A stretch of 64,000 nucleotides of DNA from Callorhinchus milii (taxonomy: Eukaryota). Positions 31,901 through 55,519 of this stretch are shown here, one piece after another. Location: NCBI RefSeq assembly GCF_018977255.1, contig NW_024704742.1, positions 63,552,001 to 63,616,000 of the forward strand, read 5' to 3'. The notes beneath the pieces were generated by a model that was given only the letters and a program-made list of their open reading frames with translations, searched no databases and was not told where the DNA came from. The position numbers and the translations under genes were made by a program. Position 1 is the first letter of the stretch. Each line of letters opens with the position of its first letter.

Positions 31901-32819
31901 CTGAAAATGATTAATTTCATAGTTTTACCATTAGTTAAAAAATGAGTGATTCTGCTTTATCTTTTGGCTTAATTGAAACTGATCAACGTAAACTCATATC
32001 CACGTTAAAACATGGATGCAAGTTTATCAGTTTTTCTTGCCATAACTTTAGATGTTTGAAAGAATTTCTGACCATAATGGGGAATGAACTTAAGAGGCCT
32101 AAAAAGTTAAAATACAAGACACACATATCTGTACTTTTTCAAAAAATGTACTCCATACCAATTGTGGATATCCATGATAGGATCAATAACAATGGAGGCA
32201 AATAATAAAAATATTATTACTATAATAATGAATGGTCCAATTCAAGAAGGAATTGATTAGCTAACTGGCAAGGAAATTGACTGAGGAAGAGACAATGGAA
32301 CATACAACATTTTTTAAAAAGCCTACATAGGAAAAGGAATAGGCCATTAGCTCATCGATCCTGCTCTACCATTTTCTTAGATCCTGGCTGATCTGTACCT
32401 CAGTACCAATTGCCTGCGTTTTCTCCATACCTGTGCCCCTCACCGCCCCCCCCCTCCACACCCCAATATCTTTACCAGACAAATATTTATCTACTTTCCT
32501 CTTACACTCCCACCAATGGATTTCTACAATCCATCAACTCTAAGACTTCTTATTTCACTACTAACCAGTCCAGCTTTAATTTTTGGATTATGTCCTTTTA
32601 TTCTGGATTCTGGAACCACAGGAAAGAGTTTCTCCTTATCCACTGTGTCAATTCCCTCTACTATCTTAATCACCTCAACCTCCTCTGTTGGACACAGCTG
32701 AAAGCTGCAGGTTGAAAAGAGAGAGCACTCACACCAAGTTCAGCACTGGCAACTGAATTATGCATTTGTGAGATTAGAAAGGCACCAGATATTCATTTGT
32801 GACATTCTACATATCTTAC

Positions 32820-32919
32820 CTGATGCCAGACCAGTCATTGTTACAACCAGCCATCCCGACCAAGCATCATATAGGCTTTTTATGAATTCCCACACAGATT
32901 CTCTCTTCTTGCTAGTAAT
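32820..32919 (-). CDS. CLCN3: CLCN3 coding exon (100 nt)
   Basis: tttcag|ATT...G|gtaaga; [33 protein letters not shown]. Confidence 0.96.
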
Positions 32920-33228
32920 CTGAAATGAATAAATATCATATTATGGACCAGACGATGAAATCTTTGACCCACAGAACTTGGTGATTCCACCATGGACCTC
33001 ACAAATAGCTTAGTTAAGTGTTTTACTGCAACTCAACACCATGATGAGTATTTCTTTAGACTGATGGTATGATGGGAATGATATTACAAATCATTTTAAA
33101 TATTCCTTCTCCTGGTATCAGTGCTTGTTGAAATAAAAACCAGTCACACAAACTCCCAACCTGAGTAATTCTTTTATGGGACATCACGACTTCTAACAAC
33201 TTATCTTCATTAATCTGCTTTCTTTTAA

Positions 33229-33541
33229 ATAATAATAATAATCCTTGCATTTGATATAGCGCTTTTCACGTCTTCTAGACATCTCAAAGCGCTTCACAGA
33301 ATATACTGTAAAGTGAATTGATTGTATATTTGTGCGTGAAATGTGGCAGCCAATTGCGCACAGCAGTGTCCCACAAACAGTCGTGGATTGAAGTGGCCAA
33401 TTTATTATTGTTTTTTTCTTGATGGATTATTATCAGGTGTGTGGAGTAAGGAAACTTGCCCAAGGTTTCTCCCTGCAGGGAATCGAACCCAGCTTTTGCG
33501 CTTGTGAGCCGAGTGCTCTAACCACTGAGCTACAGGACTCC
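33229..33541 (-). mobile_element. Full-length tRNA-SINE
   Basis: A and B boxes, body, hairpin tail and (ATT)n. Confidence 0.9.
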
Positions 33542-34160
33542 ACTACGACCTACAGGCTTTGGAATCCCAGTCTTATCCCAGAACCATTCACTAAGCTAGT
33601 TTTCTCTGCCTCATACCTCAACATTACAGGAACTCTCATGCATACCTTGGTTAAATACTTCAGACTTTACTCTTCCAATCTCTTGCTCATCAGCTTCCCT
33701 GTTCTACCCTTCGAAAGCTCCAGACCATCCAGAACTCTGCCATTTCTGAATGCATTCTCTCCCGATCAAGTCTCCACAACCCCGTCACCCCCATCCTCAC
33801 CAGGCTTCACTGGCTCCCCAGTCCCCAGTAATCATGTTCAAGATTGTTGCCTTCATGGCCTTGCCCTGCCATATAAATATAAATTTGTATTGAACTGTAT
33901 TTGTAACAACATGAGTGAACAACATTGGAGGTGTTACTTTCCATTCTGCTCACACAATTCCTGTCAGGTAGACTCTTAGCCCTGCTACCAACGAAAGAGA
34001 TGCGAGATGTCTTAACTGAGGCAAAAAAAAAATACAAAATGAAATAATTTGTACAAAATACAAACTTCTCAGCTCCACAAATCTCTGTGCAGATGAGAAT
34101 GGCTTGTTTCCTTTTCCCTTAGGTTCATATAATTATTAAATGAACTTACCTCTCTGTGTC

Positions 34161-34348
34161 AAAAGGAAAGTGAGTCAATGTTTCGGGTCCACAACACAAC
34201 CATTCTGTGTCGTTCTGATGAAGGGTTGTGGACGCAAAACGTTACTCACTTTCCTTTCTCCATAGATGGCTGCCTGACCTGCTGAGTGTTTCCAGTGATT
34301 TCTGTGTTCGTTTCAGATTTCCAGCATCGGCAGTATTTTGCGTTTTGT
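34161..34348. mobile_element. Fold-back element with a hammerhead-like motif (probably Penelope-like-element derived)
   Basis: Inverted arms; CTGATGA...AAAACGTT at 34215-34243; flanked by a 15-bp direct repeat (14/15 identical); homologous to 43612-43840. Confidence 0.75.
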
Positions 34349-34352
34349 TTAC

Positions 34353-34510
34353 CTTTCTGTGTCGTTCTCGATCTTTGCATTTTTCTCGCACCCAGTCAAT
34401 GGTGTGAAAATCATCGTAAGTTCCAACACCTGGGATAGGCTCATCCAGCAGATCCAATAAATGCGTGGAGCTGTTTATACCACCTCCATTTGTCATTGTA
34501 TAAGTGGGTC
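34353..34510 (-). CDS. CLCN3: CLCN3 coding exon (158 nt; contains the internal Met of the short N-terminal isoform)
   Basis: taaag|GA...AAG|gtaaac; [10 protein letters not shown]...[37 protein letters not shown]. Confidence 0.96.
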
Positions 34511-35124
34511 CTTTAACAAAAAACAATAGTTTCACCTATTAAACGGTTTCCTTTAATTGGCATTGTTTCAATAATCTGAAAACATGTTCCACTTTTAAAT
34601 GTCAAGCAAAGCAGAATTCCTACAAATATACTATATTTTTTACTCAAAGCACAGTGGTCTGACAACTGTGGGTTATCACCTATTTGGAGCAGGCAAGAGT
34701 GGGTACAGTGACAGAACAGGAATATCCTTTTTTTCTCACCAGCTAATTGACAGGAGGCAAGCCTAGCTAAAATACAAAAAGTCAATGATATAGTAAATTA
34801 GAGCACAACAGCTTGTATTTCAGTAAATCTGAATTTTGAAGCTTATTTTATGCACTTGAAATTATTTTATACACTAAATTGTTCTAAATTCAACGTTACA
34901 ATGCTGTAGCTCAACTTCTGCTTGAATTAAACACAAACCAAGTGCTGCTTCCATTTGGCATAGGAATCCTAGTTAATCTTAGACAACTCATAAAAAAACA
35001 GAATAATCACTAAAGATACACAAGACAAGAAGCGGTGTAGAAAGACGTTCTGCTAGATATAAAAATTCAGCATAGTGTTATAAATCTTCTATTTCTTGAG
35101 CGTTGCAATGGCTGCTTTTATTTT

Positions 35125-40374: not shown

Positions 40375-40690
40375 AATAATAATCCTTGCATTTGATATAG
40401 CGCTTTTCACGTCGGGAGGACGTCCCAAAGCGCTTCACAGAACACATTGTAAAGTGAATTGACTGTATATTTGTGGGCGAATGCGGCAGCCAATTGCGCA
40501 CAGCAATGTCCCACAAACAGTCGTAGATTGAAAGTGACCAATTTATTATTGTTTTTGGTTTTTGGAGGGATTATTATTAGGCTCTGTGTGGAGTAAGGGC
40601 ATTTGCCCAAGGTTTCGCCCTCTGCCTGGAATTGAACTCAGGTCTCTCACTTGCAAAGCGAGTGCTCTAACCACTGAGCTACAGGACTCC
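40375..40690 (-). mobile_element. Full-length tRNA-SINE, short subfamily
   Basis: Near-identical to 49-364. Confidence 0.92.
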
Positions 40691-43597: not shown

Positions 43598-43837
43598 CAA
43601 GAACTGTAGTCGCTGGGAACACTCAGCAGGTCAGGCAGCATCTATGGAGAAAGGAAAGTGAGTCAACGTTTCAGATCCACGACCCTTCGTCAGAACAGAG
43701 GACATCAGGACCCATCAGAATGGACTTGTGGACCCGAAACATTGACTCACTTTCTTTTCTCCATAGATGCTGCTGAGTGTTCCCAGGAACTTCTGTCTTT
43801 GTTTATAGATTTCCAGCATCTGCAGTCTTTTGCGTTT
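43598..43837. mobile_element. Fold-back element with an intact hammerhead core on the - strand
   Basis: Inverted arms at about 43612-43680 and 43728-43786; flanked by the exact direct repeat TGCAATTATGCAGT (43584-43597 and 43838-43851). Confidence 0.8.
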
Positions 43838-44511
43838 TGCAATTATGCAGTGTTCCTTTGGAAGTAGGCGGATTTGTGCAAATAAATTAAAGTGGATTTA
43901 ATAGGAAATTCAAAGGGAGTTGGGCAGATGTACTACATAGACGATTATATGATTTGGACAGATCAGAATTCTGTGAGTTTTACTGTATATTCTCCAGCTC
44001 TAAACCCTGCAGAGCACGATAAGCTATTGAGTCAGTAAAATAACCAATTTGTTATTTATTGGACACCTCAACTTGTTCAGTAATTTGCATCACGTCTACT
44101 TACCAAAGTAAGCCTGGAATAATCAAGTTGATGGGAGAGAAATAAACCAAATTTGCATTTTGAAAGGAAAACCAGGCATGTTCGTGGTTGTATAGTTTCT
44201 GCAGTTAGTATGTCTGTTTTTTTTTTGGTGGAAGACACTGTTTTTTAAAGACTTTTTAATGTCCTTAACTGAATACAAAAAATGGATGAATTCATGCAAC
44301 AAATCATCCAGATTTTTGTATTGCCTACAAAGACAGTCACTATGTCACAGTAAAATTCTGTGAAGCGTTTGAGATGTCTCAGCAAGGTGATATGGCACTA
44401 TGTCATATGCAAGGATTATTATTCTCGTTATTACAGTGGTATTGCTAATCTAGATCTGATCTGAGACAATGTACATAAACTACTGTACACAAACAATGTA
44501 CATAAACTAAT

Positions 44512-45267: not shown

Positions 45268-45582
45268 ATAATAATAATAATGCTTGCATTTGATATAGCG
45301 CTTTTCACGTTGGGAGGACGTCCCAAAGCGCTTCACAGAACACACTGCAAAGTGAATTGACTGTATATTTGTGGGCGAACGCGGCAGCCAATTGCGCACA
45401 GCAATGTCCCACAAACAGTCGTAGATTGAAAATGACCAATTTATTATTGTTTTGTTTTGGAGGGATTATTATTAGGCTCTGTGTGGAGTAAGGAAACTTG
45501 CCCAAGGTTTCGCCCTGCCTGGAATTGAACTCAGGTCTCTCGCTTACAAAGCGAGTGCTCTAACCACTGAGCTACAGGACTC
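45268..45582 (-). mobile_element. Full-length tRNA-SINE, short subfamily
   Basis: Near-identical to 49-364 and 40375-40690. Confidence 0.92.
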
Positions 45583-46287: not shown

Positions 46288-46657
46288 AAGTCCTACTGTA
46301 ACTCAGTGGTTAGAGCACTCGCCTCACAAGCGAGAGACCTAGGTTCAATTTCTGGCAGGGCAAAACGTTGGGCAAGTTTCCTTACTCTACACTCCTCTAT
46401 TTACCTAGGAAGTAGGAACCCGAATGTTCGTTGATTAGTGGATCGCTTTTTCGAGGTTAATACTTCCTTCCAAAAAATAATAATAAATTCATCACTCAAT
46501 CCAAGACTATTTGTGGGACACTACTGTGCACAATTGGCTGCTGCGTTTCACCCACAAAATATGCAGTCAATTCACTTTACAGTATATTCTGCGAAGCGCT
46601 TTGAGACATCTCGAAGACGTGATGAAGCACTACATCAAATGCAGGGAATATTATTAT
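46288..46657 (+). mobile_element. tRNA-SINE, long subfamily
   Basis: CTCAGTGGTTAGAGC A box, GGTTCAATT B box, central insert and tail. Confidence 0.85.
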
Positions 46658-53124: not shown

Positions 53125-53480
53125 CAGTGCTGTGGCTCAGTGGTTAGAACACTTGCCTCGCAAGCGAGAGGACCTGGGTTTGATTCCCAGGAGGGCGAAA
53201 CATTGGGCAAGTTTCCTTACTCCACACGCCTCTGTTTACCTAGCAGTAAGTAGCAACTCAACTGTTAGTTGATTGTCAGATCGCTTTTCCGGGGGTAATA
53301 ATTGCTTCAAAATAAATTTTAAAAAATTTGGTCACTCAATCCACAACTGTTTGTGGGACACTGCTGTGTGCAATTGGCTGCTGCATTTCACCCACAAATA
53401 TACAGTCAATTCACTTTTTAGATGTCCCGTGAAGTGATTTGAATCGTCTCAAAGACAATATTATTACTATTATTATTAAT
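53125..53480 (+). mobile_element. tRNA-SINE, long subfamily
   Basis: TGGCTCAGTGGTTAGAAC head; CCTCTGTTTACCTAGCAGTAAGTAG central segment. Confidence 0.85.
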
Positions 53481-55204: not shown

Positions 55205-55519
55205 TAATAATAATAATGCATTTGATAAAGCGCTTTTCACGTCTTCTCGACGTCACAAAGCGCTTCACAGAATAGACTGTAAAGTGAATTGACTGTATAT
55301 TTGTGGGCGAACGCGGCAGCCAATTGCGCACAGCAGTACCCCACAAACAGTCGTAGATTGAAGATGACCAATTTATTATTGTTTTTTGTTTTGGAGGGAT
55401 TATTATTAGGCTCTGTGTGGAGTAAGGAAACTTGCCCAAGGTTTCGCCCTCTGCCTGGAATTGAACTCAGGTCTCTCGCTTGCAATGCGAGTGCTCTAAC
55501 CACTGAGCTACAGGTCTCC
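55205..55519 (-). mobile_element. Full-length tRNA-SINE inserted in L2
   Basis: Short-subfamily body. Confidence 0.9.

Follow-up and report, generated by a model that had tools for sequence, protein, structure and literature searches.

Penelope-like elements (PLEs) leave insertions of a recognisable form, which the accessible part of Craig et al. (2021; PMC8557442) describes as an element with an adjacent inverted, 5′-truncated copy and a tail of 30–40 bp at one end only. In vitro, the PLE endonuclease prefers certain sequences and may begin with either strand, both target strands are cleaved and extended, and the tail is defined by two adjacent sites at which reverse transcription starts internally, the later steps of integration still awaiting validation as of that study (Frangieh et al. 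2024; PMC11167929). Some metazoan PLEs also carry minimal hammerhead motifs, which in the available sections of Cervera and De la Pena (2014; PMC4209133) have one additional base between positions 9 and 10.1, pair G10.1 with C11.1, show a palindromic 15.2-16.2, are without helix III, cleave poorly even as dimers, and occur as pairs on opposite strands about 100 bp apart. Here we describe the 3′ end of a PLE that lies directly on a 5′ splice site of CLCN3 in Callorhinchus milii, within a 64,000-nucleotide stretch (RefSeq assembly GCF_018977255.1, contig NW_024704742.1, positions 63,552,001 to 63,616,000 of the forward strand) that we call the window and in which all positions are counted from its first letter.

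Related outcomes are known from other systems. In LINE-1 twin priming both nicked strands prime cDNA, and the product is an inversion with 5′ truncation. A hairpin can mask a 5′ splice site, as the stem-loop at tau exon 10 does, and of two occupied donors, splicing tends to choose the one closer to the acceptor. Introners, transposons that give rise to new introns, take a splice site from their target-site duplication, as set out in the accessible part of one account (PMC11282704). In a limited literature search we found no description of a donor duplicated by the target-site duplication of a retroelement.

The insert in CLCN3 belongs to a known class: it is a PLE terminal fragment with the usual inverted partner and a target-site duplication, lying in an intron, and in these respects it is an essentially ordinary insertion. 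What is unusual is its position on the donor itself, the pair of donors of which the stronger is displaced, and the three-copy scar of the target (Table 1). Probably the best explanation of the whole is a single old integration of a PLE 3′ end, which made a 15-bp duplication, gained a third target copy by template switching and left the upstream donor in use, the other traces being neutral relics. Membership of the repeat family, the duplication, the three target copies, the link to a PLE and the use of the upstream donor are demonstrated here.

Table 1. Positions of the CLCN3 exons, the insert and the splice donors, numbered from the first letter of the window
Feature	Position	Strand	Basis
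CLCN3 coding exon, ClC-3 residues about 54-106, ending ...AGA AAG	34353..34510	-	translation, PDB match, RNA contigs
Donor in use, AAG/GTAAAC	34347..34355	-	34353-to-32919 joint in contigs, 4/4 runs
Target-site duplication copy a, GACACAGAAAGGTAA (last 11 exon bases plus GTAA)	34349..34363	-	sequence, repeat finder, pattern search
Full 137-nt repeat-family unit (3′ end of Penelope-like element); element sense is the + strand	34212..34348	-	BLAST
Decayed minimal-hammerhead motif, antisense to CLCN3	34212..34249	+	comparison with 56 and 87 family arms
In-frame TAA on distal-donor use	34242..34244	-	translation read on from exon
Spacer, third target copy b, GACACAGAATGGT (12/13 match to copy a)	34199..34211	-	repeat finder, spacer survey, pattern search
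Inverted short arm, unit positions about 91-124, without CUGAUGA box and without both normal arm ends	34161..34198	-	alignment to unit
Target-site duplication copy c, GACACAGAGAGGTAA	34146..34160	-	sequence, repeat finder, pattern search
Displaced ancestral donor, GAG/GTAAGT, 203 nt downstream	34144..34152	-	sequence
Next CLCN3 exon, 5′ part	32818..32919	-	acceptor joined to 34353 in contigs

The translation of the coding exon matches H+/Cl− exchange transporter 3 in the PDB (solved ClC-3 structures, residues 54-106, E = 1.4e-30) and ends ...RHRK, the conserved protein junction with the next exon being ...RHRK/ITSKK. On the − strand, the 3′ sequence of the exon reads ...CGAGAACGACACAGAAAG up to its last base at 34353 and is followed by GTAAACAAAACG; the end ...GACACAGAAAG at 34353 has GTAAAC directly after it. 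RNA contigs over the exon span 34353-34511/34512, with an AG at 34512-34511. Around the whole complex insertion, the target-site duplication is 15 bp long and 14/15 identical: a repeat finder reports it as a direct repeat of GACACAGAAAGGTAA (34363-34349) and GACACAGAGAGGTAA (34160-34146) at a distance of 203 nt, and a search of the 64-kb window with the degenerate 15-mer returns exactly 2 sites, the two that flank the insert. The insert between them is 188 nt long (34161-34348). The exact 14-mer AGAACGACACAGAA likewise has 2 sites in the window, at 34368-34355 and 34216-34203, where 0.04 are expected from shuffled sequence and 2 matches were seen in 0 of 100 shuffles; the repeat finder extends this match to an 18-nt direct repeat (34199-34216 against 34351-34368, 17/18 identical). 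Two pairs of inverted segments, one of 23 nt (83% complementary) and one of 19 nt (84% complementary), make up the arms, and the 224-nt stretch has a predicted RNA fold of −68.3 kcal/mol (z = −4.75). The original prediction had called for this layout, with a 14/15 target match, a third exact copy at 34216-34203 identical to 34368-34355, and inverted arms that have a target copy as their spacer; its repeats, coordinates and stop codon are all present in the sequence, and the repeat finder and pattern search bear out the arrangement.

Because the duplication takes in the final 11 bases of the exon and GTAA, the insertion took place between intron positions +4 and +5. Bases +1 to +4 of the donor in use are derived from the target, and +5 and +6 (A and C) are the first bases of the element. 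At each variable position two of the three target copies agree, which gives GACACAGAAAGGTAA as the ancestral target and AGAAAG/GTAAGT as the ancestral exon-intron boundary. An intron follows the corresponding codon in two paralogous genes (…GGGAG/GTATGT and …GGAAG/GTACTG), and the intron therefore predates the insertion.

The insert is one of many similar repeats in the same genome (991.5 Mb). A 208-nt query covering 34352-34145 has 2917 first-look candidates there, and the best 40 of these, when scored, gave 79 matches, mostly to query positions 1-191 (34352 to 34162). The window holds a second dimer at 43598-43839, in which 31 nt of spacer separate a short arm (unit 39-137) from a fuller one (unit 2-121), and with this copy as the query the genome yields 3170 first-look candidates. 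All candidate counts for the family in this genome are such first-look figures, and the count for the 137-nt unit is a lower bound. An alignment of 30 loci sets the unit at 137 nt, family copies beginning ACAAAAC, and the full arm of the insert covers unit positions 1-137 at 92% in BLAST. Most copies are tail-to-tail pairs, in which a full unit is followed by a copy-specific spacer and an inverted unit that has the same inner end but is truncated at the outer one.

Among 60 loci there are 51 distinct dimers of this kind, and in 42 of the 51 the short arm starts at unit position 30-46. A direct repeat of at least 10 nt with at most 1 mismatch flanks 35 of the 51 dimers, compared with 5 of 254 control pairs of mismatched flanks; the duplications are 12-16 nt long in 27 dimers and mostly 10-16 bp across the family. 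The history proposed in the original prediction, in which the insertion moved the donor 203 nt away and left the hybrid AAG/GTAAAC behind, gains support from these family duplications of the same length. Every copy has a spacer of its own, so each dimer formed as it inserted. The insert in CLCN3 is a family member of the usual form, with a full unit, a spacer, an inverted truncated arm and a 15-bp duplication. A DNA transposon of the fold-back type or of the miniature inverted-repeat type was considered and is ruled out by the unequal arms, the variable spacers and the varying duplication length: copies of a DNA transposon would share their interior, whereas here the spacer differs in every copy. 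The label "fold-back element" that had been attached to the insert does not hold, then, for what is the end of a PLE retrotransposon with unequal arms (1-137 against x-137).

The identity of the parent element comes from what lies beyond the unit. The next 84 nt past its inner end have 1021 first-look candidates, about a third as many and again a lower bound, and in 12 loci with such an extension the similarity continues for roughly 400 nt. At locus L072 it reaches fragments of open reading frames (ORFs) on the element sense strand, ending ...LEEQHLIYLLGTLQPSGLNIDFNKFRP, and at both L072 and L088 the ORF ends 180-300 nt upstream of the unit on the same strand. A protein search with one L072 fragment gave 151 matches among the best 150 of 660 candidates. 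At L088, a 470-residue ORF is followed by about 180 nt, the extension and the unit, on one strand throughout. This ORF contains YIDD and the GIY-YIG-like stretch VVYC..C..LYIGESKRRLGDRFAEHL, and it matches two ORFs of locus L062, the one that bears GIY-YIG (E = 2e-10) and the one for reverse transcriptase (RT; E = 6e-9), L062 itself lying above the Pfam GIY-YIG cut-off. Pfam returned no match for the 470-residue ORF at E up to 0.01; its nearest Atlas clusters are HTH_animal, RVT_1 and GIY-YIG (score 0.97), which is a lead and no proof. Because the unit is contiguous with an RT/GIY-YIG-like ORF on the same strand, and because this ORF is related to that of L062, the 137-nt unit is the 3′ end of a PLE. 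The link to the ORF is established for the family, the copy in CLCN3 being the terminal 137 nt only, and among the loci examined no intact autonomous copy was identified.

The two loci with a Pfam GIY-YIG domain, L061 (G000:C1:120031410-120034652) and L062 (G000:C12:9525870-9529085), encode RT and GIY-YIG and belong to another PLE family. They were considered as the parent element itself and rejected, since neither carries the 137-nt unit; downstream of their ORFs there is no similarity to it.

The family shares with described PLE insertions (PMC11167929, and PMC8557442 in its accessible part) a full and an inverted truncated arm inside one duplication, the loss of about 30-46 nt from one arm in 42 of 51 dimers together with the tail signature, and a hammerhead motif about 100 nt upstream of the 3′ end of the insertion. 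It differs from them in that most copies end at a fixed point 3 nt before the CUGAYGA box, where variable truncation is the published pattern, and the insert in CLCN3 differs further in its short arm, which spans only 91-124, and in the third target copy in its spacer (1/51). Across loci L001-L060 this fixed end is reached by most copies without scattered 5′ truncations, and the predicted hammerhead cleavage site is a different point, about 32 nt further in. The fixed end would be explained if the RNA had a defined 5′ end, perhaps its transcription start. Two further loci may be mentioned here: L012 holds two family dimers (1444-1677 and 2003-2239) about 330 nt apart, the second more diverged (87% to the unit), and at about 1500-1850 of L022 a solo unit sits within the reading frame of a LINE-like (long interspersed element-like) reverse transcriptase (...CGVPQGS).

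In the better-preserved copies, the element sense strand reads, in order, a CTGAYGA box, an extra A, a 5-bp helix closed by G-C, GAAA, the palindrome ACGT, a T and the would-be cleavage site. These copies resemble the minimal hammerheads of metazoan PLEs, so far as the available part of that work describes them (PMC4209133), in having CUGAYGA, the extra base, G10.1-C11.1, GAAA, a palindromic ACGU in the place of helix III, and U. They differ in helix II, which has 5 bp as against 7-8 bp in the Schistosoma families, and in how seldom the motif is complete: among 87 distinct family arms, the first box is kept in 70, CGAAAC in 35 and helix II in 37, and all three in 14. The variation among these arms looks like CpG decay and includes no compensatory change, giving no support from covariation. 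The accessible portion of a 2026 retrozyme preprint makes no mention of inverted dimers or of sharks.

The full arm of the insert retains the CTGATGA box (34215-34221, + strand), the extra A and the G10.1-C11.1 pair. It reads CAAAAC where the better-preserved copies have CGAAAC, so that G12 has become A, it has GACGC for GACCC in helix II, which breaks one inner pair, and the base after the cleavage site (1.1) is deleted; the short arm is without the box. Rfam hammerhead models have no match at the gathering score in the 64-kb window, none at E up to 10 on 34050-34450, and none in the well-preserved loci L002, L007, L014 and L029; what did appear for the window copy and these four loci were chance-level microRNA-like matches due to the hairpin. 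For a motif of the minimal type such a miss says little, the published minimal form being without helix III, which is perhaps why the curated models miss it. The CLCN3 pre-mRNA is predicted to contain no plausible ribozyme, because the decayed motif is antisense and the arm in sense orientation has no CUGAUGA box. "Hammerhead-derived" is an accurate description of the motif, and the "hammerhead-bearing" of the original prediction is overstated, given an antisense motif in which G12, base 1.1 and a helix II pair are gone and for which Rfam has no hammerhead match.

How CLCN3 is spliced around the insert can be read from contigs of four sequencing runs in two studies. In all four, contigs join 34353 to 32919 and skip 1433 nt with GT..AG on the − strand, the depths of this joint being 114.8, 22.7, 31 and 992.6 in runs X1, X3, X6 and X8. 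These runs are contigs labelled "RNA?", none of them on record as RNA, and the spliced CLCN3 in them shows that they hold cDNA. The acceptor proposed at 32919 is thus where the next exon begins, joined to 34353 in 4/4 runs. The upstream hybrid donor is used, and it yields the conserved protein junction.

The same history could also have led to a different outcome, in which the distal GTAAGT is a working poison donor: use of 34150 would add 203 nt and expose the transcript to nonsense-mediated decay, CLCN3 output would be lowered or regulated, and the hairpin would possibly tune the choice of donor. The added 203 nt do carry an in-frame stop, as had been predicted at 34242 (the TAA at 34244-34242 lies 92 nt before the distal donor), and they also shift the frame. 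The distal donor would pair better with U1, over 8 bp at −10.7 kcal/mol against 6 bp at −6.8 kcal/mol for the donor in use, in a simple duplex calculation with the 5′ end of U1. The tendency of the occupied donor nearer the acceptor to be used favours the distal site as well, and isoforms sensitive to decay, like rare variants, are lost from contigs. Yet among the best 15 of 317 joints the sole one into 32919 comes from 34353, in all four runs, and the 34150-to-32919 joint is absent from these best 15, in contigs that drop rare or unstable forms. Contig cover over 34108-34363 is swamped by other copies of the family, and neither assembly support nor intron retention can be read there.

The predicted structure points the same way as the joints. 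Over the nine donor bases the mean unpaired probability is 0.79 for the donor in use and 0.50 for the distal one, whose positions −1, +1, +5 and +6 are predicted to be mostly paired at the base of the hairpin (unpaired probability 0.05-0.11). This resembles the hairpin-masked 5′ splice sites introduced above in that the predicted stem takes in −1, +1, +5 and +6 of the distal donor, and it differs from them in that the masking is a thermodynamic prediction over few pairs, with no conservation signal. The arms of the insert are at least as diverged as those of other dimers (30/35 identical, or 85.7%, against a family median of 89.5%), the structure being apparently unmaintained; as far as arm identity can tell, nothing suggests that selection has preserved the hairpin. 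The competing productive and poison donors of the original prediction are not supported in the form proposed. We judge a working poison donor unlikely, the available evidence favouring a silent relic over a functional distal donor, and the hairpin and the distal donor are most likely neutral relics.

A bolder model would join the two donors and the scar into one account. In it, the fold-back arms would hide the displaced GTAAGT, opening of the hairpin would lead to distal use and to less CLCN3 through nonsense-mediated decay, and the three-copy scar would be a snapshot of PLE integration. This we regard as a long shot. If it were true, a PLE insertion on a splice site would have been tolerated because its own decoy suppressor came along with it; temperature, helicases or the speed of transcription could open the hairpin; and both target strands would prime, while microhomologies would guide a switch onto the single-stranded overhang of the target and so bridge the cDNA ends.

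The clue to the integration itself is copy b of the target. It is preceded by AGAAC, which is both the last five bases of the unit and the five exon bases before the target, so that the GTTCT/AGAAC microhomology claimed for the third copy in the original prediction is real. On its other side, GAATGGT overlaps an imperfect match (6/8) to GAAGGGT of the element, and the short arm continues after it. From this sequence arrangement we infer that the third copy is a template-switch scar of one integration event; our reconstruction likewise covers which steps of priming and switching came first, the view that all of it happened in a single event, and the view that the relics are neutral.

In this reconstruction, a short PLE 3′-end copy would long ago and in one event have entered an ancient CLCN3 intron between +4 and +5. 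The endonuclease of the element would have made nicks staggered by 15 bp, and both nicked strands, with their 3′ overhangs, would have primed reverse transcription. The usual product of the family would be a full 137-nt arm and an inverted truncated arm with the 15-bp duplication around both; with AAG/GTAA held in the duplication, the exon would have kept a working donor and the old GTAAGT would have become a decoy 203 nt downstream. At the CLCN3 site, the short cDNA may have stopped early and switched to the complementary single-stranded overhang at a GGT/ACC microhomology (GAA.GGT, 6/8), copying 13 nt of target and 5 nt beyond. A second switch, through the identical AGAAC/GTTCT (5 nt), would have brought it onto the 3′ end of the full-length cDNA, which it would have copied back to the other flank. 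The resulting order would be target, short arm, target, full arm, target, matching what is observed.

LINE-1 twin priming, for comparison, also gives an inverted and a direct segment in one duplication with microhomology at the internal junction, but there the two segments derive from separate parts of a single RNA and overlap very little. The arms of the present family overlap by up to about 100 nt, unlike those of LINE-1, and would need two templates, or one cDNA copied by the other.

The same order of copies and arms would arise if two members of the family had inserted one after the other at this 15-bp site. On this account a full unit, joined at its 5′ side through the usual microhomology of 5 nt, and a 38-nt inverted piece arrived separately and left three target copies between them. 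Each arm is indeed flanked separately by target copies (c, short arm, b, and b, full arm, a), the short arm is atypical as a dimer partner (unit 91-124), and the sequence preference of the PLE endonuclease, with either strand cut first (PMC11167929), makes reuse of a site conceivable. Joint arrival is nevertheless the rule, full and inverted arm standing within a single duplication in 51 dimers, and a solo 38-nt piece from unit 91 would have used neither normal start site. Both nick positions must moreover be reused to the base, and copy b, with 13 nt in place of 15 and microhomologies on both sides, fits template switching. We hold two insertions to be decidedly unlikely.

A third possibility is that mis-joined reads of an abundant repeat created the inverted repeat and the extra target copies in the assembly. 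Inverted PLE structures do disturb short-read assemblies, as the accessible part of one report notes (PMC8557442). The three target copies each have their own single difference, however, and the architecture is like that of 50 other dimers in the genome; in another four runs from this organism, 0.77-0.83 of the words sampled from 32750-34530 are present, which is only suggestive. An artefact of assembly is thereby very improbable.

For a single integration with a template-switch scar, the spacers of the other dimers are the natural comparison, and in the 50 others there is no target copy, the best matches being at most 9 nt with a mismatch. A spacer match at L019 was considered and set aside as a palindrome junction that holds no target copy. 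Visual inspection shows the end of the element copied anew, in pieces, in at least 7 of the 51 spacers, for example as CAGAAC repeats (L003, L019, L040, L042, L046, L048 and L051); such pieces fit repeated template jumps at the 5′ end of the RNA.

Several observations count against the reading that we prefer. A target copy in the spacer occurs in 1 of 51 dimers, and the switch model rests on this single case. The short arm of the insert, unit 91-124, is unlike the usual 30-46 to 137, and the 60 loci from which the usual form was established are the best matches to the two window copies and not a random sample. With respect to the parent element, the Pfam GIY-YIG score of the L088 ORF is 13.1 bits against a cut-off of 22.6, below threshold, and Pfam gave no match for the three short L072 ORF fragments. 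Finally, the better pairing of the distal donor with U1 means that by the proximity rule it should compete, and its silence is assumed.

Two neighbouring features of the window deserve a word. Seven near-identical tRNA-like matches lie above the Rfam gathering score (291-362, 33472-33536, 40622-40684, 45510-45581, 46296-46358, 53126-53198 and 55451-55513), and they are most likely the heads of a family of tRNA-derived short interspersed elements and not tRNA genes; locus L007 has a further tRNA-like match. In the same CLCN3 intron, at 33212-33595, summed contig depth reaches 10^5 to 10^6 in all four runs, with hundreds of variant contigs and joints, which indicates a very abundant transcribed repeat that overlaps the tRNA-like site at 33472-33536.

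The insert leaves knowledge of CLCN3 and of PLEs in general unchanged. Its parallel with introners, in the available part of the account cited above (PMC11282704), is that a duplication supplies splice-site bases and an insertion into a gene is rendered harmless; most introners are DNA transposons that duplicate 3-5 bp and form a new intron within an exon, whereas here a retroelement lies in an existing, ancient intron and only part of the donor was rebuilt. What the locus offers is a case, legible base by base, of a transposon that landed on the splice donor of an essential, conserved gene and survived. The 15-bp duplication re-creates AAG/GTAA, and a donor without +5G and +6U suffices for correct splicing. 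The weaker upstream and the stronger downstream donor, with a hairpin between them, form a natural test of donor competition, and the microhomology-bounded three-copy scar is a rare sequence-level clue to how PLEs finish their integration.

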